The notes below the pieces were generated by a model, which was given only the letters and a program-made list of their open reading frames with translations, was not told the DNA's origin and searched no databases. DNA of 32,000 nucleotides from contig NZ_CP045650.1 in assembly GCF_009557235.1 (NCBI RefSeq), positions 60,001 to 92,000 on the forward strand, read 5' to 3'. Position numbers and translations under genes: made by a program. This DNA is from Acinetobacter wanghuae. Lineage in GTDB: Bacteria; Pseudomonadota; Gammaproteobacteria; Pseudomonadales; Moraxellaceae. Below, in pieces: positions 2,078 through 32,000 of this stretch; position 1 is the stretch's first letter; each line of letters begins with the position of its first letter.

Positions 2078-2337
2078 ACTGCCATCCTGGCATAAATCTT
2101 TACATCAATTTACAGGTTCTTATTAAAATAAATAAAAAGATGCTCTATTGTCTTATTGATCTTAAATAAAATGATCTGTTCTATTTTCTTTTCTTTTCTT
2201 AAGATTAATTCATTCACAATCAAAAAAAATAGTGTGTTTCGTCACAAATTATCTTCTTAAATTCATGATTTTGCCGAGTGGAATTAAAAAAGTGAATGGT
2301 AGAATGATGAAAGACCTGAATTGAGCCCAAAAATAAC

Positions 2338-9973: not shown

Positions 9974-9986
9974 ACATCTCAAATCA

Positions 9987-12538: not shown

Positions 12539-12562
12539 AACTGAGAAGATAATCCTAAAAAC

Positions 12563-12584
12563 GCGCCTTTTAAGGCGCATTTTT
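12563..12584 (+). terminator. rho-independent terminator after serB
   Basis: GCGCC-TTTTAA-GGCGC followed by ATTTTT. Confidence 0.7.
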
Positions 12585-12949: not shown

Positions 12950-13285
12950 ATGTTGACAGCGAATTTAGCAACCTTGCTTGGTTTAGGCTTAGTGGCTGCG
13001 GCTGTACTTGCTGTTTTGTTCTCGCCTTATCGCCGCTGGTTAAGTTTTATGGTTGCCGGAATGTTGGTCTGGGGTTTGATTGAGGTCATTCGTTTTGGTA
13101 CGCAAACCTTATTTGAGCTACCAATGACTTACAGCTATTTAGCAGCATTAACCACAGTGATGGTGGTGGTGACTTTATTATTATTACGTGAAGACCGCCG
13201 TGCAGAACGTGCTTCGGTTAAACGCCACTGCATTGAACATACGCCTGTGTATGAAGATGATCAGCAGCAGTTACCAAGCCGTTAA
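12950..13285 (+). CDS. small integral membrane protein, function unknown
   Basis: Three hydrophobic segments. GGAGG lies 7 nt upstream of ATG 12950 (track start 12926). A terminator follows. Confidence 0.6.
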   Translation: MLTANLATLLGLGLVAAAVLAVLFSPYRRWLSFMVAGMLVWGLIEVIRFGTQTLFELPMTYSYLAALTTVMVVVTLLLLREDRRAERASVKRHCIEHTPVYEDDQQQLPSR

Positions 13286-13302
13286 AAAGAGATAAGAATA
13301 AG

Positions 13303-13330
13303 AAAAAATGCACCTACGGGTGCATTTTTC
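13303..13330 (+). terminator. rho-independent terminator
   Basis: ATGCACC-TACG-GGTGCAT followed by TTTT. Confidence 0.75.
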
Positions 13331-13425
13331 ATGACAGCAATATGATACAAACACACTGCTCAGCGTGACTTCGATTTATGCTAGGATATCTGTCGAATTT
13401 TGTACAATTATAATAGGCACACTTC

Positions 13426-13905
13426 ATGAAACTGTCGTCAATTCCTGTCCTTAAACTTCCGTTGGTCGATGTCAGCACAGATCCTCTAGATTTGTTAGTT
13501 GCAGCTCTGGCTTTACGTATGAAGCAATTGGCTCGTACGAGTCCTAAATTTATTGAACTCGTACATGAACGTCAGTTCCGTATTCAAATTGGTACAGATC
13601 TTGGTTTAGCGCGTCAAATTATTGTCAACAATGGCGAGATTGAAAGCGTATCAGGCAGCGACACGCCTGCAGATTTTGTATTGCAATTTGCAGACAGCGA
13701 ACAGGGTGTGAAAACCTTAGTCAAAGGTGACCCAACTGCATTTATGACGGGCATGCAAAACGGTACTATTAAAATGGAAGGTGACTTTGGTTTATTGGTG
13801 TGGTTTAATCAAGTAGCGAAAATGATTCCGCCAAAATTGCCAAAACCAGTGAAAGAAAAAATTAAATTTGCACGTGCATTTATTAAAGAAAAAACTGGTA
13901 AATAA
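13426..13905 (+). CDS. SCP2 sterol-binding-domain protein
   Basis: 159 aa. The C-terminal GDPTAFMTGMQNGTIKMEGDFGLLVWF resembles the SCP2 fold signature. Confidence 0.7.
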   Translation: MKLSSIPVLKLPLVDVSTDPLDLLVAALALRMKQLARTSPKFIELVHERQFRIQIGTDLGLARQIIVNNGEIESVSGSDTPADFVLQFADSEQGVKTLVKGDPTAFMTGMQNGTIKMEGDFGLLVWFNQVAKMIPPKLPKPVKEKIKFARAFIKEKTGK

Positions 13906-13917
13906 ATAATCTTCCTG

Positions 13918-13959
13918 ATTTCCCCCTCCTTTGAAAAAGGAGGGGCTAGGGGAGGATTT
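13918..13959 (-). repeat. REP-like GC-rich palindromic element, copy A
   Basis: CCCCTCCTTT (13923-13932) pairs with AAAGGAGGGG (13936-13945) around a 3-nt loop, followed by CTAGGGGAGGATTT. Its reverse complement aligns with the copies at 21183-21216 and 21241-21278. Confidence 0.7.
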
Positions 13960-13967
13960 ATTAATCC

Positions 13968-15021
13968 CTTAGATTAGCATTTGAAGTGCAACACCATGTT
14001 GTTGCCATAATACCTGACTCGGACTTTTAAAGCCGAGTCTTTTTCTTGGACGATGATTGATACGGGCTGTTATTTCTGAAATATATTCGTCCGTATACTG
14101 ATTTAAGTTACTTCCTTTTCTAATGTATTGTCTGACTAAGCCATTAGTATTTTCATTCGTACCTCGTTGCCAAGCGCTATAAGGATCTGCGAAATACCAA
14201 TCTATTTCTAATGCTTGAGCAGCATATTCATGCAGACTAAACTCCTTACCATTATCTGCGGTAATTGTTTTGAGTTGATGCTTAATTGGCTCAAGTAAAC
14301 TGATCGTTGTTTGGCAAACTTCTTCTGCTTTGCGTGAGCTACACTTCTTCAACCACAAATAACCTGTCTTGCGATCTACAATTGAGACCAATGATTGCTG
14401 ATGATTCTTACCCACAATCGTATCTATCTCTAGATCACCAAAACGATGACGCTGTTCAATCTCAATCGGTCTATCATGAATGCTTTTACGATTAGCCAGT
14501 TGACCACGAGTTTCAGGAGAGCCGTATTTCCTCTTTCTTTGATTTCTGAACCGTAGGTGATGAAAGAGAGTACCGCCCTTATTTTTATCCTGTCGTATTA
14601 AACGATAAATTGAATGCAGGCTGACTGAAACACGAGAAGCAATCTGTTCAGGACTCCATTGAAGTTCAAGATAAAAGATGACATGTGCCCATATTTCATC
14701 AGGGATTCTTTTAGGATTGGAGCAATGGCGTCTTCGAGCGAGTTTACTGGCATGCTTAGCGAAATAACCATTTCTAGCTCGATTACGATTGATTTCTCTA
14801 GAAATAGTGGAAGGTGAACGATTCAGTCTCCAAGCAATATAACGTTTAGAAAATCCTTCACGTAACAATGTAGAAATCTGATATCTTTCTTCTTGAGTAA
14901 GATGAGTATAGTTCATGATGCAACTTTGACTTTGACTTTGGTCGGTCGGAAGCAAAAGGCTAGCTCATCTTGCTTCTTTCCAATAATTTAATCTCTGTTG
15001 CACTTCATTTGAGAATCTAAG
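13968..15021 (-). mobile_element. IS30-family insertion sequence (about 1.05 kb)
   Basis: Imperfect terminal inverted repeats: CTTAGATTAGCATTTGAAGTGCAACA (13968-13993) versus the reverse complement of 14996-15021, CTTAGATTCTCAAATGAAGTGCAACA (22/26 identical). They enclose a single transposase gene. The ends resemble ISAba125/IS18-type ends from memory, unverified. Confidence 0.8.
13969..14916 (-). CDS. IS30-family DDE transposase
   Basis: N-terminal HTH (MNYTHLTQEERYQISTLLREGFSKRYIAWRLNRSPSTISREINRN) and a DDE triad context (LEIDTIVG, ITADNGKEF, NENTNGLVRQY). I prefer ATG 14916 over the track start 14955. The stop codon lies inside the terminal IR. Confidence 0.9.
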   Translation of the reverse strand: MNYTHLTQEERYQISTLLREGFSKRYIAWRLNRSPSTISREINRNRARNGYFAKHASKLARRRHCSNPKRIPDEIWAHVIFYLELQWSPEQIASRVSVSLHSIYRLIRQDKNKGGTLFHHLRFRNQRKRKYGSPETRGQLANRKSIHDRPIEIEQRHRFGDLEIDTIVGKNHQQSLVSIVDRKTGYLWLKKCSSRKAEEVCQTTISLLEPIKHQLKTITADNGKEFSLHEYAAQALEIDWYFADPYSAWQRGTNENTNGLVRQYIRKGSNLNQYTDEYISEITARINHRPRKRLGFKSPSQVLWQQHGVALQMLI

Positions 15022-15024
15022 ATC

Positions 15025-15055
15025 AAAAAAAGCCCTCAAACTTGAGGGCTTTTTC
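15025..15055. terminator. bidirectional terminator downstream of dtd
   Basis: AAAAAAAGCCCTC-AAACTT-GAGGGCTTTTT. Confidence 0.8.
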
Positions 15056-15086
15056 TTGGAATTTTGCGCTGAATCTTGAGCGGGAA

Positions 15087-15527
15087 TTATTCTACTTCTA
15101 AATTAAACGTCACAGGTCCATCATTGACCAAATGCACTTTCATATCCGCTGCAAAGATACCTGTTTGTACATTTTCAAACTGGGACTTTGCATATTCAAC
15201 CAATTGCTCATACAGCTCTTTTGCTGCAGCAGGCGGCATGGCAGGCCCAAAATCTGGACGTAAGCCTTTTGTAGTTTGTGCCATTAAGGTGAACTGTGAA
15301 ACCAAAAGTAAACCGCCGCCCGCTTGAGTAATATTCCAACCCATTTTGCCATCTTCATCATCAAAGAAACGATATTTCAATATCTTATCAATCAGCTTTT
15401 TGCCTTTTTCTAACGTATCTTCTTTACCAATGCCTAAAAAAACCAAAATGCCGTGTTCAATTTGACCTGTGGTTTCGCCGTCGACCACCACTTTGGCTTC
15501 AAGAACTCGTTGTAAAAGCGCGCGCAT
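15087..15527 (-). CDS. dtd: D-aminoacyl-tRNA deacylase
   Basis: 146 aa beginning MRALLQRV...VVDGE..G.I..G.LVFLG, with SQFTL and a GPVT C-terminal motif. The length matches Dtd. Confidence 0.93.
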   Translation of the reverse strand: MRALLQRVLEAKVVVDGETTGQIEHGILVFLGIGKEDTLEKGKKLIDKILKYRFFDDEDGKMGWNITQAGGGLLLVSQFTLMAQTTKGLRPDFGPAMPPAAAKELYEQLVEYAKSQFENVQTGIFAADMKVHLVNDGPVTFNLEVE

Positions 15528-15750
15528 ATGTTTCCCAATTGGCTGCTGTGAAATCGGGGCTATTGTAGCAAAAGCCCAATCGGCTGCGCAGCGTCAGGTA
15601 AAAAACAGCTTAATGGCTAAATCCAAATACAAAAAAATAAGATCATTTAATAATTCGATTGAAATGATAAATTTTATCCGTTTTATCTATTTTTTGTTCT
15701 CACGTATCTTTCTCGGTGCAGGAAAGGTATTTAACAGAGAGATTAAGACG

Positions 15751-17269
15751 ATGTTTAAGCGTTCTTTATTGGTTGCGATGTTAGCAACAGCGACAGCGGC
15801 GACTCAAGCAGCGCCATTAACCAAAGACAATGGTGCACCAGTAGGCGATAACCAAAACTCGATTACTGCAGGTGAACACGGTTCAGTTCTGCTTCAAGAC
15901 GTTCAATTGGTTCAAAAATTACAACGTTTCGGTCGTGAGCGTATTCCTGAACGTGTTGTACACGCACGTGGTACAGGTGCTTATGGTGAATTCGTAGCGA
16001 CTAAAGATCTATCTGATCTTACTATTGCTTCATTATTCAACGCAGGGACTAAAACGCCTGTATTCTTACGCTTCTCTACAGTAATTCACGGTAAGCACTC
16101 GCCAGAAACTTTACGTGATCCGCATGGTTTCGCGATCAAGTTCTACACGCAAGAAGGTAACTGGGACTTGGTGGGTAACCAAACGCCTGTATTCTTCATC
16201 CGTGATGCGATCAAGTTCCCTGACTTCATTCACGCAATGAAGCCAAGCCCAATTGACAACGTTCAAGATGCGAACCGTGTATTCGACTTCTTGTCTAGCC
16301 AGCCATGGGCAACAAACATGTTGACTTATGTGTATGGTAACCAAGGTGTTCCAACGAGCTACCGCGAGCAAGATGGTTTCGGTGTACACGCATTTAAACT
16401 GTACAACGATAAAGGCGAATACAAATACGTGAAGTTCAACTTCCGCTCTAAACAAGGCGTGAAAGGTCTGAACGTGAAAGAAGCTAGCGAGTTACAAGGT
16501 AAAGACTTCAACCACCTAACGAATGATCTTTACAAGAACATCAACGCGGGTAACTTCCCGAAATGGGATTTGTATATCCAAGTGTTAGATCCTAAAGATC
16601 TCAACAGCTTTGATTTCGATCCGCTAGATCCAACCAAAATCTGGCCAACGAACTTAGTTCCAGAAACTAAAGTCGGTACATTGACGCTGAACCGTATGCC
16701 GAAAAACTTCTTCCAAGAAACGGGAACAAGTGGCATTGGCACCGGGTAACTTAGTTCCAGGGATCGAGCCATCAGAAGACCGTCTATTACAAGGTCGTAT
16801 CTTCTCTTACTCAGATACGCAAATGTACCGTTTAGGTGCTAACCACCAGCAAATTCCAGTAAACCGTCCATTGGTAAATGTGAACAACAACAACCAAGAT
16901 GGTTACATGAACCTTGGCGGTACTTCATCTAACGTGAACTATGAACCAAGCCGTATTGAGCCAAAACCCGCAACTGCGAAAGCACGTGCGGTAGAAACTC
17001 CGCTTTCTGGCACAGTTCAACAACGTGGTGTGAAAGAGCAAAACTTCAAGCAAGCGGGTGAACTTTACCGTTCATACACTGCGAAAGAAAAAGACGACTT
17101 AATCATGAACTTAGCGGCTGACCTTGGCAACGTTAAAGATTCAGAAACCAAACACATCATGTTGTCTTACTTCTACAAAGCAGATGCTGATTACGGTACA
17201 CGTATGACTAAAGCTGTAAACGGTAACCTTGCAACTGTAAAAGCGAAAGCAGCAAAACTTAAAGACTAA
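15751..17269 (+). pseudogene. katB: monofunctional haem catalase with Sec signal peptide, split by a +1 frameshift (extra G in 16722-16724)
   Basis: The two track ORFs (15469..16749 and 16730..17269) join as ...[39 protein letters not shown] once one G is removed. The distal-His signature FGRERIPERVVHARGTGA is in the first part and the proximal-Tyr signature RIFSYSDTQ in the second. The real start is ATG 15751 (MFKRSLLVAMLATATAATQAAP). 1519 nt equals 506 codons plus 1 nt. The symbol is by analogy with P. aeruginosa katB-ankB. Confidence 0.85.
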
Positions 17270-17455
17270 TTTCGATCAGTCTGAAGTATTGGTGACTAGG
17301 GTTTAAGACTTCACCTCAAGAAAGTCCTGTAAAATTCCAAACCTTTCCTGCACCCTAGGGGGAGTTTTACAGGCACTCGGTTGTATCTGTTTTATCTAAT
17401 CGGAAATGAAATGCCTGACATTTCTTTCTACATTCGATTTCTGTTGGAGTTCATC

Positions 17456-17980
17456 ATGGGTGGTATGCAACGTATCATTTTAGCCAGTATTCTTACGTTT
17501 AGCTCCGCATTCGCACACGTAGCGATCGCAAAGGATATCTCCCCCGCTAAAAGCGCGGCTAGCGCTCAGATGACCTCACAACAGGAATTGATAGCGCTGT
17601 TCTTTGCCGCAGCGAAAACCGGCAATGATGAAGTGATTAATGAATTTCTCAAGCATGGTTTTCCAGTCGATGTACGTAATGTCGATGGCTATACCCCATT
17701 GATGATGGCGGCCTATTATGGTCAGCAAAGCATTGTCAGCACTTTGCTGCTGAAACATGGTGCTGACCGCTGTGCGCGTGATAAAAAAGGCAATACTGCT
17801 TTAATGGGTGCTTTATTTAAAATGGAATTTGCTGTCGCTAAACAATTGCGTAGCGTCGATTGTGATGCTAATGCTAAAAAAACCGGTCAAAAAACCACAG
17901 CAGAATTTGCCAAAGTGATTGGGCAAGAAAAGCAGTTACAAAAAATTATTCAAGAAGCGGAAAAATCGAAATCAAAATAA
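17456..17980 (+). CDS. ankB: ankyrin-repeat protein with signal peptide (AnkB-like catalase accessory protein)
   Basis: Ankyrin repeats (GNDEVINEFLKHGFPVDVRNVDGYTPLMMAAYYGQQSIVSTLLLKHGAD...KKGNTALMGA). GGAG lies 6 nt upstream of ATG 17456. It sits immediately downstream of a catalase, as in P. aeruginosa katB-ankB. Confidence 0.8.
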   Translation: MGGMQRIILASILTFSSAFAHVAIAKDISPAKSAASAQMTSQQELIALFFAAAKTGNDEVINEFLKHGFPVDVRNVDGYTPLMMAAYYGQQSIVSTLLLKHGADRCARDKKGNTALMGALFKMEFAVAKQLRSVDCDANAKKTGQKTTAEFAKVIGQEKQLQKIIQEAEKSKSK

Positions 17981-18108
17981 GTGATTTCTTTAGAAGACTT
18001 TAGTCTAAATAATGCTCCATTTTTTCATTTGGCTGTATGTAAAACCTGCAATATTTTGCTTGTATTTATGCTTTAATGAAATGAAGTACAGCGATATTAC
18101 CTTTAGTT

Positions 18109-19314
18109 ATGGCGCCAATCATTCATTCTTTGTTAGATACGGACTTGTACAAATTCACGATGTTACAAGTGGTCTTGCATAAATTTCCGCAAACACACAG
18201 TGTCTATCATTTCCGTTGTCGTAACCTTGAGGATACAGTCTATCCTTTGGTTGAAATCCTTGATGAATTGAATGAACAGCTCGATTTACTCTGTACCTTA
18301 AATTTTAAAGAAGATGAGTTGCAGTATCTGCGTAGCTTACGTTTTATCAAAAGTGACTTTGTCGATTATCTTGAATTATTCCAACTTAAACGTCGTTTTA
18401 TTAAAGCCAGTATCGACAGTGAAGGTCGCTTAGACATTTGGGTTGAAGGACCGATGGTACAAGCGATGATGTTTGAAATCTTCGTTTTAGCCATCGTGAA
18501 TGAACTGTATTTCCGACGTATTCGTTCTGATGCTGTTTTGGCAGAAGGACAGCGTCGTTTAGATGCAAAAGTTGAATTGCTGAAACATTATGCTGAATTA
18601 CAGGGTGCAGAAGAGCCACCATTCTTGGTATCTGATTTTGGTACGCGTCGTCGTTATAGCTTTGCGTGGCAAAAGCACGTGGTTGAAGAGCTACATAAAG
18701 CAGCACCGAATGTATTCCGCGGAACCAGCAATGTTTTACTCGCGAAAGAATTAGGCATCACCCCAATTGGTACGATGGCGCATGAATTCCTTCAAGCATT
18801 CCAAGCCTTAGATGTGCGGTTACGTAATTTCCAAAAATCTGCGCTGGAAACATGGGTACAAGAATACCGCGGTGATTTAGGTATTGCACTGACTGATGTC
18901 GTCGGTATGGATGCCTTCTTACGTGATTTTGATTTGTACTTTGCTAAATTATTTGATGGCTTACGTCATGACAGTGGCGATCCCTATGAATGGGGCGATA
19001 AAGCCTATGCCCATTACAAAAAGTTGAAAGTCGATAGTAAAACCAAAATGCTGACCTTTAGTGATGGTTTAAATATCGAAAAAGCATGGGCGTTGCATCA
19101 ATACTTTAAAGATCGATTCCAAGTCAGTTTTGGTATTGGCACCAATTTAACCAATGATATGGGACAAACCGCCCTGAATATCGTGTTGAAATTAGTGGAA
19201 TGCAATGGTCAATCGGTCGCTAAAATTTCCGATAGTCCGGGTAAAACCATGACGGATAATGATACCTTCTTGGCTTATTTACGTCAGGTCTTTGATATTA
19301 CTGAGCCTGCTTAA
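18109..19314 (+). CDS. pncB: nicotinate phosphoribosyltransferase
   Basis: 401 aa with [12 protein letters not shown] at the N-terminus, FGTRRR and GTMAHEF motifs. The length matches PncB. Confidence 0.93.
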
Positions 19315-19326
19315 ATCGATTGAAAA

Positions 19327-19357
19327 AAGCCGTCTTCGTTTTAAGGCGGTTTTTTTA
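19327..19357 (+). terminator. rho-independent terminator after pncB
   Basis: AAGCCGTCTT pairs with AAGGCGGTTT (10 bp including 2 G-U pairs), followed by a T-run. Confidence 0.7.
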
Positions 19358-19483
19358 TGTATTGTCATTTTTAAATCAATTTTTATCTCAAAAACTGCTA
19401 ATCATCACAATAAAAACAGCATATTTGCAAAAATGAGCTGTGCTAAGATCAAATAGATTTGAACGATAATAGCTTTGACGACC

Positions 19484-20326
19484 ATGACCGCTTTTAATTT
19501 TCCTTTGCTCATTGAAGCAGAAGATTTGCTACCGCATTTAGACCATGACAAACTCAGAATTGTCGATTTAAGTCGTGCTTCCGTGTATGAGCAGTTGCAT
19601 ATTCCACATGCGATTCATCTCAAGCCAAAATTATTAGTTCGTCAAGACGAACAAGCCATGGGGCTATTTCCAGAACAAGAACAGCTTGAAGAATTGATCC
19701 GTTATTTAAATATTTCCCCTGAGCACCATGTCGTTGCATACGATGATGAAGGTGGTGCTTGGGCGGGGCGATTACTGTGGAACTTACATTGTATTGGCTT
19801 TGAAAATACCAGTTTACTCAATGGCGGAATTCACGCATGGCTTGGTGCAGGCTTAGCAACATCGTCAGATCAAGAAAAAATCGCGCCCGTCGACAAGCTC
19901 GTTCAAATTGATTTATCACAAAAAAATAAATACCACATTGACTATGACACGCTGCGTTCACAGGTGGAACAAGGTCAGATTCAAATTTGGGATTGCCGCA
20001 CTGAAGATGAATATACTGGGTTACGTTTAGCAGCGCGACGCGGCGGTCACATTCCGGGGGCACGTCATTTCGAGTGGAGTACTGCCCTTAATCGTCAAAA
20101 TCATTTAAAATTACATCCATTACAGCGCACAGAGCAGCGCTTGGAACAACTCGGTTTTGACTTAAAACAGCCTGTTGTGGTGTATTGTCAGTCGCATCAT
20201 CGTTCAGGTTTGGCTTATATGTTAGGACGTTTATTGGGTTGGCAAATTCAAGCCTATGATGGTGCGTGGAGTGAGTGGGGCAACCGCCTCGATAGTCCAA
20301 TCGCTACGGGGGAGTTCCCATCTTGA
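19484..20326 (+). CDS. rhdA: tandem-domain rhodanese (thiosulfate sulfurtransferase, RhdA-type)
   Basis: Two rhodanese domains. The active-site loop CQSHHRS resembles Azotobacter/Pseudomonas RhdA (CQTHHR). It lies directly upstream of psd, as in P. aeruginosa rhdA-psd. The start is ATG 19484 or TTG 19475. Confidence 0.8.
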
Positions 20327-21174
20327 GCATCGCATCACGTTTAAAAAAACAAATCTTCATTCAAGCTCAACGTGTGGTGCCACAGCATCGTTTATCACGC
20401 GTGGTCGGTAAATTGGCTGCAAGTGAAAATCTTATTGTTAAAAATGCAGTGATCACTGCTTTTAAAGCGCAATACGGCATTGATATGTCGATTGCAGAAC
20501 AACAAAATGCATTGAAATTTAAATCATTTAATGAATTCTTTACGCGCGCCTTAAAAGACGGTGTGCGTGCAGTCGATGCAGATCCGACGAGCATTGTGTC
20601 TCCTGCGGATGGTGCTATTTCACAGTTAGGTAAGATTGAAAATGGAGATGTATTCCAAGCCAAAGGACAAAAATTTACCGTTGAAAATTTAATTGCCGAT
20701 CCGCAATTGGCTGAACCATTTAAAAATGGTCAGTTCGCGACTGTGTATTTATCACCAAAAGATTATCACCGTGTGCATATGCCATTTGCAGGCACACTGA
20801 CAGAAACCCTGTATGTGCCAGGTGAGTTGTTCTCAGTGAATCAAACTACAGCGGAAAATATTCCGGGTTTGTTTGCGCGTAACGAACGTATGGTGTGTTT
20901 ATTTGATACTGAACTTGGTCGTATGGCGGTTGTACTAGTTGGTGCAATGATTGTGGCGGGTATTGAAACTGTCGCGACGGGTAAAGTGAAGCCATCAGGT
21001 CGTATTGAGTTAAATCAACATGATTTATTCTTGGAGAAGGGCGCAGAGCTTGGTCGTTTCTATCTCGGTTCAACGGCTGTGGTCTTATTTGAAGAAAATA
21101 AAATGCAGTGGGATGCGGCGTTTAGAGCCAATTCAGAAGTGGTGATGGGTGAAGCAATGGGGCATACCATTTAA
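20323..21174 (+). CDS. psd: phosphatidylserine decarboxylase proenzyme
   Basis: 283 aa with the self-cleavage motif LGSTAVV near the C-terminus and DYHRVHMP. The TTG start overlaps the rhdA stop (TTGA), and there is no nearby in-frame ATG. Confidence 0.92.
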
Positions 21175-21182
21175 GCTGCTTT

Positions 21183-21216
21183 AGCCTCCCTTTAAAAAAG
21201 GGAGGTTGGAGGGATT
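21183..21216 (-). repeat. REP-like GC-rich palindromic element, copy B
   Basis: CCTCCCTTT (21185-21193) pairs with AAAGGGAGG (21197-21205), followed by TTGGAGGGATT. It is in inverted orientation relative to copy C, 24 bp away. Confidence 0.7.
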
Positions 21217-21240
21217 ATGAGAGTTACTTCTCTAAAATTT

Positions 21241-21278
21241 AAATCCCCCTATTCCCCCTTTAACAAAGGGGGAGGCTG
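21241..21278 (+). repeat. REP-like GC-rich palindromic element, copy C
   Basis: AAATCCCCCTATT head, then CCCCCTTT (21254-21261) pairs with AAAGGGGG (21265-21272), then AGGCTG. Confidence 0.7.
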
Positions 21279-21280
21279 TA

Positions 21281-21306
21281 AAAAAAGCGCCTTCAGGCGC
21301 TTTTTT
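21281..21306. terminator. bidirectional terminator between psd and the SPOR gene
   Basis: AAAAAAGCGCC-TTCA-GGCGCTTTTTT. Confidence 0.8.
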
Positions 21307-21317
21307 AAATTGAATAC

Positions 21318-21923
21318 TTAGCGTTTTACAACGATGGAATCAATCCCACTGTGTTGTAAGGTTTGCTGTGCAATGATCGCTGCATCGGCTGAATCATACG
21401 GACCTGAAACAACGCGATACCACACTTTCCCCCCTTCGACACTACGTACCACATCTGCAGATAGACCATTTAAGATAATCTCGGCACGACGTGCGTCCGC
21501 TTGATCGGGATCGTCAAAACTACGTACTTGTAGAATATAAGATTGAGCCGGTTTTGCAGTCTCAGCAGTTTCTAAACCGGGTTCAGTAGGTTCTTCAACT
21601 TCTGCTTGTGGGGCTTCAACAATCACAACTGCATCCTGACTTTTCGTTTCAGGAATGGCTTGTTCTGGAATTGGGGTCACTTGTTGTTGCGGAAGTAGAT
21701 CATAAAAACGATAGTCTTTATTGGTGTCATCTTCTTCTTGATAGTGTTCAGAGGTAATATGATTTTTAGGTTTAACCGGTTCCCACGGTTTCCATAGCAA
21801 AAGCGCCATTAAAAAACTCAAAACAATCAAAATGATGACGAGTGTACCGAGCCACGTAGGAATCAATGGTTTTTTCGGCTTGTTCGGTCTTTCAGATACA
21901 CCGCGCTGAGTTTTTCCAAACAC
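21318..21923 (-). CDS. SPOR-domain (peptidoglycan-binding) membrane protein, FtsN/DedD-like
   Basis: N-terminal TM (WLGTLVIILIVLSFLMALLLW), an acidic/Pro-rich linker and a C-terminal SPOR domain (YILQVRSF...GKVWYRVVSGPY...A). GTG start with GAGGAAG upstream. Confidence 0.8.
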   Translation of the reverse strand: MFGKTQRGVSERPNKPKKPLIPTWLGTLVIILIVLSFLMALLLWKPWEPVKPKNHITSEHYQEEDDTNKDYRFYDLLPQQQVTPIPEQAIPETKSQDAVVIVEAPQAEVEEPTEPGLETAETAKPAQSYILQVRSFDDPDQADARRAEIILNGLSADVVRSVEGGKVWYRVVSGPYDSADAAIIAQQTLQHSGIDSIVVKR

Positions 21924-22117
21924 TGGGAACTTCCTCTTATCTTTATTCTGGGGATAGAAAAGGCATAACCAAAGTTATGCCTTGTTCTAATTATCGTATG
22001 TGATCATGAACTAAAAGTCATTATTTAGAACATAAACTTCATATGATTTTTGTCGCGAATACTGCTTTTTACCTTCATTTTTGCTTCATAAAAGAAAAAT
22101 GAGTTTAAAAAACCAAG

Positions 22118-22144
22118 TTTGCATACTCATATTGAGTATGCAAA
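22118..22144 (-). terminator. hairpin downstream of argS (probable terminator)
   Basis: Perfect 12-bp stem TTTGCATACTCA / TGAGTATGCAAA with a 3-nt loop. On the minus strand a T-run (TTTTTT) follows 5 nt after the stem. Confidence 0.6.
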
Positions 22145-22170
22145 ATCGTATATGGTGCTAAAAGTTCGGT

Positions 22171-23964
22171 TTACATGCTTTCAGGAGCAGAAACACCGAG
22201 TAACTCTAGACCGTTACGAAGCACTTGACGTACATTGACCGACAATAATAAACGCGCTTGAGTCAGTTCAGCATCATCACCAAGGACTTTATTTTCGTTG
22301 TACCAGCCATGGAATAATGCAGCTAACTCTTTCAAGTAGTTACCAATTTGATGTGGTTCATAGCTATTTGCTGCACGTACTAAAATTTCAGGATATGCCG
22401 CAAGTTTCGCTAAAATTTCTGACTCAGTTTCAAGCTCAAGTTTAGCCGCTAAACCACGTGCCACAGTTGCATCAAAGTTAACATTGAGGCTAGTTGCTTT
22501 TTCTAACATACGGCAAATACGTGCGTGCGCATATTATTGGATGTAGTACACCGCGTTGTCTTTGCTTTGTGACACAGCAAGGTCTAAGTCAAAGTCAATG
22601 TGTTGCTCAGATTTACGCATAACGTAGTAGAAACGTGCAGCATCGTTGCCGACTTCTTTACGAAGATCACGCAACGTCACGAACTGACCTGAACGAGATG
22701 ACATTTGCACCATCTCACCACCACGCCATAGGCTGACGAACTGAACCAACAATACGGTTAATTTTTTAGAGTCATAACCAAGCGCATCAATGGCTGCTTT
22801 TACACGTGCGATATAACCGTGGTGATCTGAACCCCAAATATCAATGATATCGGTATAGCCACGTTGTAATTTATTCAGATGATATGCAATGTCAGATGCG
22901 AAATAGGTCGTTTGACCATTGCGACGTTTCACCACACGGTCTTTTTCATCGCCAAAATCAGTCGATTTAAACCAAATGTTGCCGTCTTTTTCGTAAAGGA
23001 AGCCACGTTGATCTAAAGTTTGTAATGCTTCTTCAATCTTGTCGGTTAGGGTTTCTTCACTGAACCATTGATTGAAGGTCACACCGAATTCGCCAAGGTC
23101 ATCTTTAATATCATCAAGAATCGCTTTGAGCGCCGCTTGTAAGAATACGCGGTAGCCTTGACCAATCAAGGCTTGTGAATTGAAGATCAAGCCATCAATG
23201 TGTTTTTCTTTGTCGCCTGACAGTACAACTTTATTACCGTCTGCATCAAGTTCAGCGGCAAATTGCACATCTTCAGGAACATCTTTATAGACATCTGCTA
23301 CTGGTCGAACATACGCATCGCCGTCTTTATCGATAATACTTTGCGCGATTTCTTTAACGTAGTCGCCTTGGTAAGCATTTTTCGGGAACACCAATTCTTG
23401 ACCTGTTAATTCTAAATAACGCAGGTAAGTTGATGTTGCCAAGATGTCCATTTGACGACCAGCATCATTGACATAGTATTCGCGATCAACTTTAGCGCCT
23501 GTCGCTTCAAGAAGATTCGCAACGGTCATGCCATATGCTGCACCACGACCATGACCCACGTGCAGGCTAGAGGTTGGGTTGGCAGAAACGAATTCAACTT
23601 GAATGCGTTTGTCTGCATTGGCTTGGGTACGACCATAGCTATCTTGTTGTGCTTGAATTTGATCGAGAACGCTAAAACGCTGATCAGCATTTAAGAAGAA
23701 ATTAATAAAACCGGGACCCGCGATTTCCGCTTTGCTGATATCTGCGACTTCAGGAAGTGCAGTTAAGATTTTCTCTGCTAAGTCACGTGGCTTCATACCC
23801 GCAGCTTTAGAGGCAATCATCGCAATATTTGAAGCGAAATCACCGTGTGTTCGGTCTTTGGTACGCGTCAAACTACTGGTGTTTTTCCAGTCAGATGGGA
23901 GGACACCTTCAGCTTGAAGGGATTGCACTGCATGTTCTAGAGCTGCTTGGATTGCCGTGTTCAT
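22171..23964 (-). pseudogene. argS: arginine--tRNA ligase interrupted by an extra in-frame TAA codon (22534-22536)
   Basis: The track ORFs 22534..24009 and 22171..22509 are in the same frame. The junction reads VYYIQ-TAA-YAHARICRM, the conserved ArgRS block with one additional stop codon. The N piece has the HIGH-type HVGHGRG and MSSRSG loops. The C piece is a DALR-type domain ending LLGVSAPESM. From ATG 23964 there are 596 sense codons plus the internal stop. Confidence 0.9.
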
Positions 23965-24149
23965 AATCAGTCGAAAATAAATGTCGCGGAAAAACAGTAA
24001 ATATAGCAAATTTCAGGCTGTTTAGGTGAAACCATTTGTAGGCAATAACAAATACCCCGTCAGTATTAAATTAGGTGCATCGTTAAAAATTATCTAAAAA
24101 TTAAAGCCTTCATAACGTGAATAATCTGTATTTTATTGGGATAAAAATA

Positions 24150-25499
24150 TTAAAGCCAATATTCAACGATGGCGCGAATAATACCTAATACCATTCCAAT
24201 AAATGCACCGACCACGACCCCATTGACGCGGATCATATGCAAGTCACCACCGACTTCATTTTCAATTTTATCAATCATTTCGCGCGAGTCCCATTCGTGA
24301 ATACGTTCACTAATGAAGAGAATGATTTTCTCGCTATATTGATCACTTAAATCGACGGCAATACTGCTCAGACGGGTATTGAGTAATTCACGTACAGACG
24401 GGTTAGAGATAATGTTTTGTCCGACTTGTTGAATCGCAATCCGGATATTTTCTGCAATACCTGAATTGGCTTGTTCCAAATCGTTTTTAATCGCATCACA
24501 TAAGATGGCAACCGCACCACTAATAAAATTCAATACTTGTGGGCTATCGAGTAGGGCATTTTTACTTTGGTTTAAGCGCTGACTGGTTTGACTATTTTCA
24601 TCTGCCAGTTCAAGCATAATAACATTGGCAGATTCTTCAATTTTTAAGCGCCAAGGATGATCAGGATCGGCAAGCATGGCTTCGACCCGCCCAATCACTG
24701 AATCGATACTGCGTTGTTGCACATCAATGCCAATCCAACTGGCACCTTTGGCAAGCTTCCAAACACCCATTTCTTTAAATAAATTGCGCGTAATGTCTTG
24801 GGTTTTTTCTGGATGATTGATCATCCATTCATGGGCTAAATCTAGACCGCGTTGTAAAACATCTTGATGGAAGTCATTTTCTAAAACAGCACGCAGCATT
24901 TCACTGGCTAAATGATTGATTTGGGTGTTTTTTACCCATTGCACGCTATTACTTTGAATAAAACCTGAAATTTGCTCCTGACCCACAAACTCAAAAATCT
25001 TCGGAACTGATTGCTGAATCACTTGCATCACTTGCGTATTATTTTGAGGGTTGGCAAGCCAATGTCCTGCGGCAAGACTTAAATCTGTATCGGCAAGGGT
25101 ACGTGACACAATTTGCGGTGATAAGAAATTTTCTTGAACAAATCGCCCCATGGACTCAGCAATACGGGCTTTATTACGTGGAATAATTTCGGTGTGATCG
25201 CGTAAAAACTTTGGAATAGGTAATTTGCCAAAAGGATTGCGAAATAACACAGTAATGGCATACCAATCGGCGAGCCCACCGACCACACCCGCCTCAGCAG
25301 ACAGCATGAGAATATGAATCAGCCAAACGTATTCTGGTAATAGCTTGGCTGCCACCATCAAAGCCAACCATGCCAAAACTGCAAGTACTAAGGCAATGGT
25401 GGCAAAGCGTTTACTGCGTTGTAGGCTGGGTGCAATGGTGTCTGTCGGCATAACATTTCTATTGAGCAGGGGTTGTAGTTTGCGGTTGGAGAACTTCAC
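24150..25499 (-). CDS. DUF445-family membrane protein
   Basis: N-terminal TMs and a C-terminal GGDLHMIRVNGVVVGAFIGMVLGII segment typical of DUF445. The start is uncertain: GTG 25499 overlaps the upstream gene by 41 nt, while ATG 25451 lies 7 nt after its stop. Confidence 0.7.
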   Translation of the reverse strand: MKFSNRKLQPLLNRNVMPTDTIAPSLQRSKRFATIALVLAVLAWLALMVAAKLLPEYVWLIHILMLSAEAGVVGGLADWYAITVLFRNPFGKLPIPKFLRDHTEIIPRNKARIAESMGRFVQENFLSPQIVSRTLADTDLSLAAGHWLANPQNNTQVMQVIQQSVPKIFEFVGQEQISGFIQSNSVQWVKNTQINHLASEMLRAVLENDFHQDVLQRGLDLAHEWMINHPEKTQDITRNLFKEMGVWKLAKGASWIGIDVQQRSIDSVIGRVEAMLADPDHPWRLKIEESANVIMLELADENSQTSQRLNQSKNALLDSPQVLNFISGAVAILCDAIKNDLEQANSGIAENIRIAIQQVGQNIISNPSVRELLNTRLSSIAVDLSDQYSEKIILFISERIHEWDSREMIDKIENEVGGDLHMIRVNGVVVGAFIGMVLGIIRAIVEYWL

Positions 25500-26013
25500 C
25501 CGTTGGACCTAAACCATATTTTTGACCTAAGGATTGTAAGATCAATCGTGCATCGAATGCATCACTTGGTGCTTGTTTCTCTTTATAACATTGAATGGTG
25601 TACGCAACTTGAGCGGGGTCAACTGTCACACTATATGGGGCATCATAGAACGGGTCAGGCCAAGCAAAAGCACCACGACGATAATACCCATAGGAATGAT
25701 ATCTCGGTGCAGGATAGACCACAGCTTCGCGCGGTGGTTGCTGCGTGCGATTACTTGGATCATCAATCACTTTAAAAAACTGAAAACCTTGTTGTACTGT
25801 GGTTTGTGCAGACTTTAATAGCGCAATTTCTTCAGCGGTGCCAAAGCTCATATTGGGTAAGGCTTTAAAGCTGACCCGATAAGTCTGTTGGTTCAATGGC
25901 GTGGTGCTAAATTGACCTAATTGATCAAAAGTACGAGGTTTTGTTGGAGTTGAAGCACATCCTGAAAGACCGATCACAGCGGCAGCTGCGAGTCCTAAGA
26001 TCCATGTTTTCAT
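25459..26013 (-). CDS. lipoprotein, function unknown
   Basis: Signal peptide plus lipobox (AAAAVIGLSGC). AGGAG lies 8 nt upstream of ATG 26013. Confidence 0.75.
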   Translation of the reverse strand: MKTWILGLAAAAVIGLSGCASTPTKPRTFDQLGQFSTTPLNQQTYRVSFKALPNMSFGTAEEIALLKSAQTTVQQGFQFFKVIDDPSNRTQQPPREAVVYPAPRYHSYGYYRRGAFAWPDPFYDAPYSVTVDPAQVAYTIQCYKEKQAPSDAFDARLILQSLGQKYGLGPTGEVLQPQTTTPAQ

Positions 26014-26044
26014 GCGATGACTCCTATTCTTAAATGAAACATCT

Positions 26045-26584
26045 TTAGAAACTGCTATTCGGTTCAGTCAGAAATTGAATTTCTTCTGCTGTCGATTCAC
26101 GTCCTAAAATTTGATTGCGATGTGGGTAGCGTCCAAAGCGATCAATAATCATTTTATGCTTTTTTTCAAATTCTAAATTGGTCGGATTGCCCAAACGTTG
26201 AAATAATTTTACAGCGAATTCATGCATCAACTTCGATTCGCTATGCATAAAGGGCATATATAAAAATGAACGCTGCTCAGGACTCAGTTGCTTATCTAAA
26301 TCTAAGCTAATGGCTTCTTGCGCGAGCGCCAATGCCAAACTGTCTTGGGCAAAGGCTTGTGCTGTATCGCGATAAATGTTTCGTGAAAATTGATCGAGTA
26401 CAATGATCTCAGCCAAACGACCTTCAGGGCTTTTACGCCATGACCAAAGTTCAGCCTGAGCAGCTTGTTGCAAAATAGTGCCAAATTTAGCACTTAGGGT
26501 TTGGTCAAATTCATCACTTTTTGAAAACCAATACGGCTGCGTTTCGGGTGCATACCAAAACTGTAAGATATCGTCATAATTCAT
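26045..26584 (-). CDS. DUF924-family protein
   Basis: 179 aa with ILQFWY...WF..SDEFD and VLDQFSRNIYR...YMPFMHSE, a pattern typical of DUF924. Confidence 0.75.
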   Translation of the reverse strand: MNYDDILQFWYAPETQPYWFSKSDEFDQTLSAKFGTILQQAAQAELWSWRKSPEGRLAEIIVLDQFSRNIYRDTAQAFAQDSLALALAQEAISLDLDKQLSPEQRSFLYMPFMHSESKLMHEFAVKLFQRLGNPTNLEFEKKHKMIIDRFGRYPHRNQILGRESTAEEIQFLTEPNSSF

Positions 26585-26796
26585 AGCAGTTACAATTCTT
26601 TAGCATTTATTTGTCCATAAAATCACAAATTTCACATGTCTAATAGGGGAACTTTGTGTTAAAAAATTTGCCACATTAGAACGTGAGCGTTTGCTTGCAA
26701 ACTAGACAGGGTGTAATGTGCAGACCTGAAATCACGGTATACTTATATAAACTGATGATTTTATTTTAATAGTTTATCCCATTAAGCGAGATTGTA

Positions 26797-28374
26797 ATGA
26801 GTCAACTGGAATCGACCACTCAAGAAGTATTGCCAAGCTGGTTAGATCCGTCGCTATTCACAGGAATGTTGCGCGGTATTGAGCGTGAAAGCTTACGCAT
26901 GCAGAGTAACGGTTTTCTATCACAATCTTTGCACCCGAAAGCGCTGGGTTCAGCGTTGACTCATCCGCATATTACGACGGATTATTCTGAAGCTTTAATG
27001 GAATTTATTACGCCGCCAAAGCCAACGATTCGACAAGCACTCGACTATTTGATGGACATTCATGCGATTGCCAATCGTCAGCTTGAAAATGATGAAAAGC
27101 TTTGGCCGATGTCGATGCCATGTATGCTCGATAGCAGTGATGAGCAGATTCCACTGGCGCAATATGGCACATCGAATGTGGGGCGTTTCAAAACTTTGTA
27201 TCGTCATGGTTTAGGTGTGCGTTATGGTCGCCGTATGCAAACCATTTCTGGAGTTCATTACAACTTATCTTTCCCTGATGAACTTTTTGAAGCGTTACAA
27301 GCCCAAGAAACTGATAAAAAAATCAAAAAATTAAGCCTGCAAGATTATCGTAGCGAACGCTATATGGGCTTGATTCGTAACTTTATTCGTTTGACTCCAT
27401 TGGTGATTTTCTTAGTCGGCGCTAGCCCTGCAGTATGCCAATGTTTCATGACCGGTCGTGATCATCATTTATTGCCTTTAGTCAAAGGGACGTTGTATTC
27501 ACCCTATGCCACAGCCCTGCGTATGGGACGTTTCGGTTATCAAAATTCTGCGCAAAAACAACTGGGTATTCACTACAACAACTTAAAAGACTATTTAAAA
27601 GGTCTACAAAAAGCGGTTAAAACCTCTTATAAATCGTTTAAACGTTTAGGTCTGGAAAATGCCCAAGGCGAAGCGATTCAGATTAATGACCATGTGCTCC
27701 AAATTGAAAATGAATACTACAGTTTAGTCCGCCCGAAACAAGTGCCACAAGCAGATGAAACCCCATCACAAGCGCTTGAAAATCGTGGTATTGCCTATGT
27801 CGAATTGCGTGCAGTCGATGTGAATCCGTATAGTCCAATTGGGATTACCGAAGATACTGCCGGCTTCCTTGAAGTAGTGGCTTTATATTGTTTATTGCAA
27901 GACAGTCCTGCTTTATTGAAAGATGAAGAAGATGTGATTGAGCGCAATCAAGCAGAAGTTGTGAATCGTGGTCGTGCTCCAAATGTTGATATTATTGAAA
28001 ATGGTCAAGCGCATCCAATTGAAGATTGGTGTACTTATCACATTCAACGTATGCAACCTTTGGCAGCGCTGTTAGATTCAACAGATAACACGACATTGTA
28101 TACAGATGCATTAAAAGCGATGATGGTGCGTGTCGATGAAGTCGATGCAACTTTATCTGCGTTAATGGTCGGTGACACACGTGAACAAGGCGGAATGTGG
28201 CATTTTGGTCAAGCCTTGGCACAGCAACATGTAAGTGCATACGAGCAACATCAAATGAGTGCCGAAACCTTGGCATATTTTGAGCAAGCAGCAAAAGTGT
28301 CAATACAAAAGCAACAACAACTTGAGCAAGACTCAACGGTGAGCTTTGCAGAATATTTAGCACAATATCGATAA
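26797..28374 (+). CDS. gshA: glutamate--cysteine ligase
   Basis: 525 aa with LRGIERESLR near the N-terminus, ISGVHYNLS and YVELRAVDVNP, typical of proteobacterial GshA. Confidence 0.93.
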   Translation: MSQLESTTQEVLPSWLDPSLFTGMLRGIERESLRMQSNGFLSQSLHPKALGSALTHPHITTDYSEALMEFITPPKPTIRQALDYLMDIHAIANRQLENDEKLWPMSMPCMLDSSDEQIPLAQYGTSNVGRFKTLYRHGLGVRYGRRMQTISGVHYNLSFPDELFEALQAQETDKKIKKLSLQDYRSERYMGLIRNFIRLTPLVIFLVGASPAVCQCFMTGRDHHLLPLVKGTLYSPYATALRMGRFGYQNSAQKQLGIHYNNLKDYLKGLQKAVKTSYKSFKRLGLENAQGEAIQINDHVLQIENEYYSLVRPKQVPQADETPSQALENRGIAYVELRAVDVNPYSPIGITEDTAGFLEVVALYCLLQDSPALLKDEEDVIERNQAEVVNRGRAPNVDIIENGQAHPIEDWCTYHIQRMQPLAALLDSTDNTTLYTDALKAMMVRVDEVDATLSALMVGDTREQGGMWHFGQALAQQHVSAYEQHQMSAETLAYFEQAAKVSIQKQQQLEQDSTVSFAEYLAQYR

Positions 28375-28393
28375 AATAATTAGAGGATTAAGC

Positions 28394-28921
28394 ATGCGAG
28401 CAGGTTATCGCTTTGTCAGTGGTGTGTTGTTTTTAGCGTCTGTTGTAGGAATGGCATTCGCGCTATATCTAGAACACGTCCAAGGGCTTGAACCTTGCCC
28501 GCTATGTGTGTTTCAGCGCATTGGCGTGATTGGCTTGGGACTCATTTCGCTGATTGCATTGCTACATAATCCAAAATCAAATGCAGGAAAACGCATTTAT
28601 GCATTTTTAGGCAGTTTAAGTATTTTATGGTCGGCAGGTGTGGCAGCGCGTCATGTCTGGTTGCAACATTTACCACCAGATAAAGTACCGAGCTGTGGGC
28701 CGGGTTTAGACTATTGGGTTGAAACCTTGCCGTTAAAATCGGTATTTGAGCAGGTACTTACAGGCTCAGGTGAATGCGCGAAAATTGATTGGACGCTGTT
28801 CGGACAATCCTTGCCTGTCTGGTCATTGTTATTTTTCAGTGTGTTATTGCTTATTAGTCTATGGCAGCTCTTTCGCCAATATCAGACTGCACCGGTTAAA
28901 CGGTTAATTGATAAATATTAA
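28394..28921 (+). CDS. dsbB: disulfide bond formation protein B
   Basis: 175 aa with four TMs, a CPLCVFQR first periplasmic loop and a second Cys pair (C...GSGEC). GAGGA RBS. It starts 19 bp after gshA. Confidence 0.9.
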   Translation: MRAGYRFVSGVLFLASVVGMAFALYLEHVQGLEPCPLCVFQRIGVIGLGLISLIALLHNPKSNAGKRIYAFLGSLSILWSAGVAARHVWLQHLPPDKVPSCGPGLDYWVETLPLKSVFEQVLTGSGECAKIDWTLFGQSLPVWSLLFFSVLLLISLWQLFRQYQTAPVKRLIDKY

Positions 28922-28926
28922 GTCAA

Positions 28927-28956
28927 TAAAAAGCCCTCAGATGAGGGCTTTTTTTT
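28927..28956. terminator. bidirectional terminator between dsbB and the convergent hydrolase gene
   Basis: AAAAAGCCCTC-AGAT-GAGGGCTTTTTTTT. Confidence 0.8.
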
Positions 28957-30322
28957 AGGTTAAGGCAATGCCTTCTACGCTTTCTAAATCGAGCATAAAC
29001 TCGTGGATTTGATCGAGCTGATCATCGTCCTGCTGTGGATAGAACCAACGTGTGATTTGTTCAGCCACACTTGGATGATACTGAATATCAAAATGGTTTA
29101 AGCCATAAAAAATAGCTTTATGTGATTCAGGAATTTTGAGCTGAAAACGTGGATTCGGATGTTCACCGAGCGCACTTTTTACACTCACCAAATAATCGCC
29201 AATCACGTTACGTGTACGGTTTTTACGGTTTTCAAATTCAATCGTCCCTGCCACCAAATACGCATTAATATGTGAAGGAATCGGTGCAGGTTTACGATTG
29301 TCATCCATAAAGCCAATACGAACCTCATTGTGTTCCCAATCATCATCACGCACGCTGCCGTGACGTAAATCCAAAATACCATTACTGCGGATGTTGACCA
29401 CATGCCCGACAATTTTCATAAAGGGGAAATGCCCGAGTTTTTCTTGTAAGGTAAAACCGAAACGTTCCAGTACTGCACCATGATGTGGTGAGCCTAAACA
29501 AACCAAATTCTCAACAATATTCACCCATTCATAGACATTTTGTTTGCCATAGAACAGCGCACTACGTGACACCAAGCCGCCCATACTATGTCCAATTAAA
29601 TTGAAATGAGTAATATTAGGATTACGATTGAGCAAATCTTGTAAGGTATTGGCAAGGCTGCGCCCATTGGCAGAGATACGTCGCCCTGTGTTGTAGTTTA
29701 AATATAACAAGGTATTGTGCGGGTCTTGGGCTAAAAGCTTTGCGCCAATGCCTTCATATTTTTGGTTTGACCAATCAAGATGGTTCATACATAAACCATG
29801 CACAAATATGGTCACTCGACCTGAAAGTTGACCTTTTTGTAATTGGTTTTGATGATCATACAGGCACATAGGCAGTGCAATTGGATTATGATCACGCAGC
29901 AAATAATCACCAATAATCCCGTTCAATGCCCCGACTAAAAAATGCAGGCTAGGCGTTAAGGGTTTGTCATGTAATTTTGGAAATTTTGCAATAATACTGC
30001 GTAGACTTGGCGCAACTAAACTATTGCCATAATGGAAAATAATGTCATAAGACATTTGGTAGAGCTTGGTCATATAAGGAACATTTTGAATTTTTTTCGA
30101 GCTTTGCTCGCTAAAGCCAAACAGACTCATCAAAATTTCACGCTGAATGGTCTTGATCAGTTCTTGCACCACATCACTAAAACGTAAAGTGACCAATTGC
30201 GCCATACCTTCAAGTAAATCAGCTTGGCTGGGCGGGGTACGATCCCACTTACAATAGGTCTCATGCAACGGGGTTAAGCTTGGCATTGTTCCTATCCCTT
30301 CAATGGACCGCTTCACCGACAT
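28955..30322 (-). CDS. alpha/beta-fold hydrolase (lipase/esterase-like)
   Basis: Nucleophile elbow GHSMGG, with a later GSPHHG. The alternative start ATG 30286 has the better SD (GGATAGGAACA-ATG). Confidence 0.75.
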   Translation of the reverse strand: MSVKRSIEGIGTMPSLTPLHETYCKWDRTPPSQADLLEGMAQLVTLRFSDVVQELIKTIQREILMSLFGFSEQSSKKIQNVPYMTKLYQMSYDIIFHYGNSLVAPSLRSIIAKFPKLHDKPLTPSLHFLVGALNGIIGDYLLRDHNPIALPMCLYDHQNQLQKGQLSGRVTIFVHGLCMNHLDWSNQKYEGIGAKLLAQDPHNTLLYLNYNTGRRISANGRSLANTLQDLLNRNPNITHFNLIGHSMGGLVSRSALFYGKQNVYEWVNIVENLVCLGSPHHGAVLERFGFTLQEKLGHFPFMKIVGHVVNIRSNGILDLRHGSVRDDDWEHNEVRIGFMDDNRKPAPIPSHINAYLVAGTIEFENRKNRTRNVIGDYLVSVKSALGEHPNPRFQLKIPESHKAIFYGLNHFDIQYHPSVAEQITRWFYPQQDDDQLDQIHEFMLDLESVEGIALT

Positions 30323-30525
30323 CTTTCTTTTTTGAGGTGATCGCGGTATAAATTCTTATGATCTGTGATAGTTCTCAGAATACTTTTAAAATACCGAGAA
30401 TTGCAGCATTGCTATCAGGATCTTGTCTAACAATGTGGCGATTAAAATAAATTGAATGAATGTGATCTATGTCTCATTTATAAAATAGATTTTGATCATT
30501 TCCTATACTTTTTTGTTATCAGTCG

Positions 30526-31119
30526 ATGAATGTCATTTATTTGCATGGCTTTAAAAGTAGTGCGCTGTCTATAAAAGGGCAGTTACTTGAAAAATATTGT
30601 TCGAATAATCCGAATATTAATGTGCATTTGCCCGATTTAAACCAATCACCGCTGCATGTGATTGACCAGTTATCCAGTTTAATCGAGTCGATGAATGACG
30701 TGGCATTGGTCGGCAGTAGCCTTGGTGGCTTTTATGCGACACATTTGGTCGCGAAGCATCATGTGCCGGCTGTACTGATTAATCCAGCAATGCGACCATG
30801 GCAATTGTTCCGCGAACTCTTTGATGAGGTATTGCCTTATCAAGTTCATCCAAATTGGTGCTTGGATGATTCAGATCTTGACCAACTCGAACAATTGGCC
30901 CTGCCAACTGCACAAGATGCAGACAAAATTTTAGTGCTATTGCAACAAGGCGATGAAGTTTTGGATTATCGTGAAGCACATCGCTATTATAGTGATGCTC
31001 GTCCACCTGCGATGATGATGACGGAAGCGCATGGTAATCATGGTATGGACGATTTTGCGGAGAAAATTCCGCTTGTTTTACAGTTTTTATTGGACTGCAT
31101 AAAAAAGGAAACCGAATAA
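30526..31119 (+). CDS. yqiA: YqiA-family esterase (UPF0227 alpha/beta hydrolase)
   Basis: 197 aa with IYLHGFKSS and GSSLGG motifs. It lies immediately upstream of parE, as in E. coli yqiA-parE. Confidence 0.8.
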   Translation: MNVIYLHGFKSSALSIKGQLLEKYCSNNPNINVHLPDLNQSPLHVIDQLSSLIESMNDVALVGSSLGGFYATHLVAKHHVPAVLINPAMRPWQLFRELFDEVLPYQVHPNWCLDDSDLDQLEQLALPTAQDADKILVLLQQGDEVLDYREAHRYYSDARPPAMMMTEAHGNHGMDDFAEKIPLVLQFLLDCIKKETE

Positions 31120-31120
31120 C

Positions 31121-32000
31121 GTGTCTCAATATACGGCTCAATCTCTTGAAGTTTTATCTGGTTTAGATCCGGTGCGTCGTCGCCCGGGCATGTATACCGA
31201 TACCACTCGTCCGAACCACTTGGCACAGGAAGTAATTGATAATGCAGTCGATGAGGCACTTGCGGGACATGCCAACAAAATTACCGTGATTGTCTATAAA
31301 GACGGGTCATTGTCGGTTGAAGACAATGGTCGTGGTATGCCTGTTGATATTCATCCGGAATATGGTCAAAGCGGTATCGAAATTATTCTGACTAAACTGC
31401 ATGCCGGCGGTAAATTTAGCACCGACAACTACCAATTCTCAGGTGGTTTGCATGGTGTGGGTATCTCCGTCGTTAATGCCTTGTCGACCCGTGTGGAAGT
31501 TGCGGTACAGCGTCAGGGTAATCTATATAAAATGAACTTTGAGCAAGGTGAGCCGACAGCACCGCTTGAAGTTTTAGAAGGCAAATGTGCGAAACGTGCT
31601 ACAGGTACAACTGTCCATTTTTGGCCTGAAGCGAAATATTTTGATTCACCAAAATTCGCCTTAAAAGCCTTAAAACACAATCTGAAAGCCAAAGCCGTTT
31701 TAGCGGCAGGTCTGCAAATTAACTATGTCGATCAAATCAACGATGAGAAGATCACATGGCAGTTTGAAAATGGTTTAGTCGACTATTTGATGGACGAAAT
31801 GCAAGACCGCGAAATTATTCCGGCACCTGCATTTGTGGCAACGGGTGATGCAGACCGTGCCAGTGCTGAATTTGCCATTTGTTGGAATGTCGAAGGCGGT
31901 GAAAGTATTCAGGAATCTTATGTCAATTTGATTCCAACGGCGCAAGGCGGTACGCACGTCAATGGTTTACGCTCAGGTGTCACCGATGCCATGCGTGAAT
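31121..32000 (+). CDS. parE: DNA topoisomerase IV subunit B (N-terminal part; continues beyond the window)
   Basis: The frame is open from GTG 31121 to the window end. Translation gives SQYTAQSLEVLSGLDPVRRRPGMYTDTTRPNHLAQEVIDNAVDEALAGHA...EDNGRGMPVD...KLHAGGKF. It is called ParE rather than GyrB by yqiA synteny and the N-terminus. Confidence 0.88.
   Translation, partial: MSQYTAQSLEVLSGLDPVRRRPGMYTDTTRPNHLAQEVIDNAVDEALAGHANKITVIVYKDGSLSVEDNGRGMPVDIHPEYGQSGIEIILTKLHAGGKFSTDNYQFSGGLHGVGISVVNALSTRVEVAVQRQGNLYKMNFEQGEPTAPLEVLEGKCAKRATGTTVHFWPEAKYFDSPKFALKALKHNLKAKAVLAAGLQINYVDQINDEKITWQFENGLVDYLMDEMQDREIIPAPAFVATGDADRASAEFAICWNVEGGESIQESYVNLIPTAQGGTHVNGLRSGVTDAMRE

Follow-up and report, generated by a model that had tools for sequence, protein, structure and literature searches.

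The argS locus and its internal stop codon

The window, by which we mean the whole 32-kb stretch of DNA analyzed here, is part of CP045650.1, the genome of the Acinetobacter wanghuae type strain dk386T (PMC8269215). The features discussed below are collected in Table 1. Translation of argS, the gene for arginine--tRNA ligase (ArgRS), from the ATG at 23964 to the terminal TAA at 22171 gave 598 codons, namely 596 sense codons, the internal TAA, and the terminal TAA. At the break, the minus strand reads GTG TAC TAC ATC CAA TAA TAT GCG CAC GCA CGT ATT TGC CGT ATG, and this codon string agrees with the translation. The in-frame TAA that had been reported in the preliminary description was therefore borne out. 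The position given there for the 15-codon string was right as to its end (22507) and as to the ATG at 22509, but the string starts at 22551 (45 nt) and not at 22545. The open reading frame (ORF) 22534..24009 stops at the internal TAA (22536-22534), and the extra codon falls between Q476 and Y477 of ArgRS. At the nucleotide level, the break corresponds to a change from CAATAT to CAATAATAT, that is, a 3-nt tandem duplication.

Table 1. Features of the argS locus and sites at which the window carries inserted nucleotides
Feature	Position	Strand	Description	Basis or scope
A8 run (A7 in dk771)	2222..2229	.	intergenic, upstream of rarA	compared only with dk771
GGG (GG in dk771 and two conspecific MAGs)	16722..16724	+	frameshifts a 505-aa catalase	
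CTGCTG (CTG in all relatives)	17747..17752	+	extra Leu in an ankyrin-repeat protein, 174 aa vs 173	
AGAAGA (AGA in all relatives)	17992..17997	.	intergenic, 5' arm of a small hairpin past the ankyrin gene	
argS (arginine--tRNA ligase)	22171..23964	-	596 sense codons and one in-frame TAA	translation, Pfam
First ATG past the stop, sole candidate restart	22507..22509	-	8 codons between; opens a 112-aa ORF	
Tandem triplet duplication	22533..22538	.	ATTATT on the + strand, AATAAT on the minus strand; ancestral state a single copy	
In-frame TAA, next base T	22534..22536	-	internal stop of argS	translation

Pfam analysis of the 476-aa N-terminal piece detected Arg_tRNA_synt_N (3.9e-23) and tRNA-synt_1d (1.5e-23), and that of the C-terminal piece detected DALR_1 (2.1e-33). 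The stop falls at position 3 of the DALR_1 profile, immediately past the catalytic domain, which agrees with its earlier placement at the junction of the catalytic core and the anticodon-binding domain. The translation also contains HVGH and MSSRSG, which are motifs of the HIGH and KMSKS type, respectively, and the best solved relative was the ArgRS of Campylobacter jejuni (3FNR, 1.8e-83). The argS product thus resembles bacterial ArgRSs such as those of C. jejuni (3FNR) and Escherichia coli (4OBY) in its three domains, in both motifs, in its 596 aa, and in the sequence YYIQYAHARI, and differs from them in the extra TAA of the dk386 record at Q476/Y477. All the domains and motifs of an ArgRS were found, but a single uninterrupted frame was present in the sister isolate dk771 and not in the dk386 record. 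As had been stated in the preliminary description, a second argS was not found within the 32-kb window. argS is an essential gene, and dk386T exists as a living culture.

In the public record, the protein identifiers of the SPOR protein (QGA09946) and the DUF445 protein (QGA09947) are consecutive, and argS lies between these genes; argS is therefore without a protein identifier and is probably annotated as a pseudogene. Exact look-ups gave no protein record for either ArgRS fragment (476 aa and 112 aa). Their absence would follow from annotation of argS as a pseudogene, because NCBI gives pseudogenes no protein.

Distribution of the extra codon among relatives

argS loci were taken from the 80 Acinetobacter species genomes listed, among which A. 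wanghuae was not included. The YAHAR motif search gave no match in the 80th locus, and in all 79 species genomes where the motif was located, YYIQYAHAR was found without the extra codon, encoded as TAY TAY ATH CAR TAY GCN. This intact block in 79 species upheld the earlier view that the stop is a 3-nt unit added by tandem duplication and not a substitution. In the alignment with the nearest assembly, a 3-nt gap was observed at the argS site and the flanks had no mismatch; on the plus strand, ATT stands against ATTATT, so that exactly 3 nt are extra, as had been expected of close relatives.

Within the species, the argS stop was found in none of the 10 conspecific loci, which comprised dk771 and nine metagenome loci. 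The short allele was present at the three triplet sites in all nine of the metagenome loci, and at the catalase +G site in both of those covering it. Since these four sites were short in every conspecific locus covering them, the alleles of the window are derived there. Furthermore, the degenerate pattern YYIQ-[TAA/TAG/TGA/TGG]-YAHAR matched the window once, but matched none of the 94 loci compared and none of the metagenome contigs scanned, whereas the wild-type YYIQYAHAR pattern was found in at least 120 metagenome contigs. Because the relatives and the metagenome contigs are without the codon, the sequence comparisons indicate that the extra codon of argS is an added triplet that occurs only in this sequence.

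Comparison with the sister isolate dk771

The A. wanghuae sister isolate dk771, formerly Acinetobacter sp. dk771, is represented by a draft assembly (GCA_009601085.1), of which contigs WITK01000023.1 and WITK01000006.1 correspond to positions 1-14638 and 14690-31926 of the window. Over the 31,875 bases compared, there were no substitutions and no deletions, and the window carried five insertions of 1, 1, 3, 3, and 3 nt. Two of these were intergenic and two were gene-breaking (argS and catalase). Inspection by eye revealed no motif common to the five insertion sites. The ArgRS of dk771 (MQW91843.1 / WP_153389248.1) is intact and identical to the 596 sense codons of the window, which supports the earlier statement that these codons amount to a normal ArgRS length. 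As for the sequencing itself, type strains from the originating laboratory would usually be sequenced by long reads and second strains by Illumina.

The +G insertion split the catalase gene into the ORFs 15469..16749 and 16730..17269 on the plus strand, and dk771 is the only record of the intact 505-aa catalase (MQW91837.1). The 174-aa ankyrin allele, on the other side of the comparison, has a single entry, QGA12263.1, on a 2,767,765-bp A. wanghuae contig. The AGA insertion lies in the 5' arm of a terminator-like inverted repeat (TTTAGAC / GTCTAAA, 17992-18009) located 3' of the ankyrin gene. For the other genes, RarA, PurC, DapA, nicotinamidase, SerB, the SCP-2 protein, Dtd, NAPRTase, SPOR, DUF445, a 184-aa protein, DUF924, and GshA are all on record both in dk771 (MQW identifiers) and on the large A. 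wanghuae contig (QGA09930 to QGA09950). Exact look-ups of two longest-ORF proteins gave no match, probably owing to start-codon choice, as the gene at 8969-9928 was called as 319 aa in dk771, compared with a longest ORF of 323 aa.

The window also contains an IS30-family element at approximately 13908-15026, between the SCP-2 gene and dtd. Its transposase (QGA09941.1, 315 aa) is encoded at 14916..13972 on the minus strand. The element is missing from two conspecific MAGs (GCA_041811475.1 and L093). Both dk771 contigs stop inside this element, and the transposase is for that reason recorded from the large contig alone. Short-read contigs typically break within such IS copies. Since the dk771 contigs break inside it, the element is probably multi-copy.

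A consensus error as the best-supported explanation

Of the four explanations offered in the preliminary description, the consensus or assembly artefact was favored, and the remaining three, namely a null allele with a backup copy, ochre suppression, and a two-piece enzyme, gained nothing from the comparisons. On the sequence evidence, we consider it very probable that the argS TAA is an error in the deposited dk386T sequence, CP045650.1. A spurious 3-nt tandem duplication would have entered the consensus of this record. In the living dk386T, the site most likely reads CAATAT and the ArgRS is most likely a one-piece 596-aa enzyme like that of dk771, so that no recoding, no split enzyme, and no suppression would be operating in this strain. 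The preliminary description had regarded reads giving CAATAT without the triplet as the mark of an artefact; dk771 does read CAATAT, in a second assembly rather than in reads, and comes close to this.

The consensus error is favored because five insertions, of which two break genes (one of them essential), alongside zero substitutions in 32 kb are unlike evolution. In real divergence, substitutions far outnumber indels, deletions outnumber insertions, and a nonsense codon in argS is not fixed. As expected of indel errors, the triplet was private to one assembly, and the small indels occurred without substitutions and regardless of their coding consequence. We infer that all five insertions would be technical and not mutations, and the catalase +G, like the argS TAA, probably arose as an error of this type. 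The window shares several properties with residual indel errors in finished genomes: a private lesion, an intact clonal sister, a homopolymer +1, a frameshift elsewhere, the lack of substitutions, and an argS without a protein identifier. However, it differs from them in that three of the five insertions here are 3-nt tandem duplications and not 1-nt homopolymer changes.

Several observations count against an artefact. First, triplets make up three of the five differences; no sequencing platform is known for triplet tandem duplications as its classic residual error, whereas 1-nt homopolymer errors are classic. Second, a 5.8-kb stretch contains four of the five insertions, a mildly non-random distribution (~p = 0.03, a rough estimate). 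Third, a stop is created by just 26 of the 1322 possible triplet duplications of argS (2%), although this objection is weakened because a first reading of the sequence selects exactly such hits. In addition, dk386 and dk771 are separately named isolates, and real differences between them are therefore possible in principle.

Alternative explanations

If the triplet were real in the sequenced dk386 stock, the strain could survive by an ochre-suppressor tRNA, by low-level readthrough, or by a second argS elsewhere. We regard this as unlikely. It is consistent with the sequence standing in the public record, unaltered in the window, with the oddness of triplet duplications as a sequencing error, and with the MAG GCA_041811475.1, which independently has nonsense changes in argS and dtd. 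As in ochre suppression and programmed readthrough, a gene that needs to be expressed contains an in-frame UAA. However, the stop is unconserved, being absent from the clonal sister, all conspecifics compared, and all metagenome contigs scanned; the codon itself is an ordinary terminator, used by 13 of the 16 other ORFs of the window, and stands here as UAA-U, a strong terminator context. In E. coli, no termination context is known to be stronger than TAA followed by T. Also against suppression, no tRNA gene, and so no suppressor tRNA with a UUA anticodon, was found in the 32-kb window, and there is no stimulatory structure at the stop. Moreover, the companion frameshift is beyond rescue by any suppressor, and zero substitutions beside five insertions are unlike real divergence.

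In the conspecific MAG GCA_041811475.1, a private TAT to TAA change was observed at codon 183 of argS, and a GAG to TAG change in dtd at position 11096 of its locus. Both nonsense changes lie within 12.9 kb, and they are two of only three private substitutions in the ~9 kb compared. This pair may be an assembly error. An ochre suppressor reads both UAA and UAG. That the TAA is real in dk386T by way of an ochre suppressor, which would also explain the TAA and TAG of the MAG, or by way of a two-piece ArgRS formed through termination and reinitiation, appears very unlikely from the sequences compared.

That the sequence of the window was altered after download and the stop codon planted is, in our judgment, highly improbable. 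The absence of the argS and catalase fragments from the protein records would fit such an alteration, but it is accounted for by NCBI assigning pseudogenes no protein. A planted edit was rejected because another private allele of the window, the ankyrin protein with its extra Leu (QGA12263.1), stands in the public genome, and the numbering of the protein identifiers shows that argS was already non-coding in the public record.

In a two-piece ArgRS, the 476-aa catalytic piece and a 112-aa helical piece restarted at ATG 22509 would assemble non-covalently. The break coincides exactly with the boundary between the catalytic domain and DALR_1, and an in-frame ATG follows 24 nt downstream of the stop. 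Other class I synthetases can be rebuilt in vivo from their fragments, and some synthetases are split in nature; known cases are the split AlaRS of Nanoarchaeum and the fragment complementation of IleRS and MetRS. The argS break shares with natural split or fragmented synthetases its position at a domain boundary and the arrangement of both pieces in one frame. Known natural split synthetases, however, are conserved as gene pairs in which both members have complete domains and a start signal of their own, whereas the split here occurs in a single record, and no relative was split at this site among the 79 species, the conspecific loci, and the metagenome contigs. Inspection of the sequence upstream of ATG 22509 revealed nothing resembling a Shine-Dalgarno sequence, as had been noted before. 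The restarted piece would also lose YAHARICR, eight conserved residues that open the first DALR helix, and the alignment of the 112-aa product to DALR_1 began only at profile position 28 of 117. Furthermore, the protein records contain neither fragment, and the local RNA fold is no stabler than shuffled sequences (z = +0.74). We therefore consider a two-piece enzyme extremely improbable.

Reassignment of TAA, or skipping of the codon by programmed recoding (hopping or transcript slippage), has the presence of the TAA codon alone in its favor, and its probability is close to nil. Codon reassignment was rejected, since TAA is the usual stop in the window and terminates argS itself as well. Similarly, hopping and slippage were rejected, as no matching take-off and landing codons surround CAA TAA TAT and no homopolymer of sufficient length is present. 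Rfam gave no matches in the window, 155 of 200 shuffles folded at least as well as the sequence around the argS stop, and a stop was conserved at this site in 0/79 species, 0/10 conspecific loci, and none of the metagenome contigs.

Implications for A. wanghuae dk386T

If the stop were real, an essential synthetase would depend on natural ochre suppression or would function as two pieces without a covalent link, and either case would matter for translation research. However, the argS TAA, although it stands in the public record, is most likely not a biological feature, a sequence error being the best-supported explanation. The dk386T reference genome appears to carry uncorrected small insertions, with a density of about one per 6 kb over the window. 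At least argS and the catalase gene are broken by them, and pseudogene calls and gene-content comparisons drawn from CP045650.1 therefore need caution.
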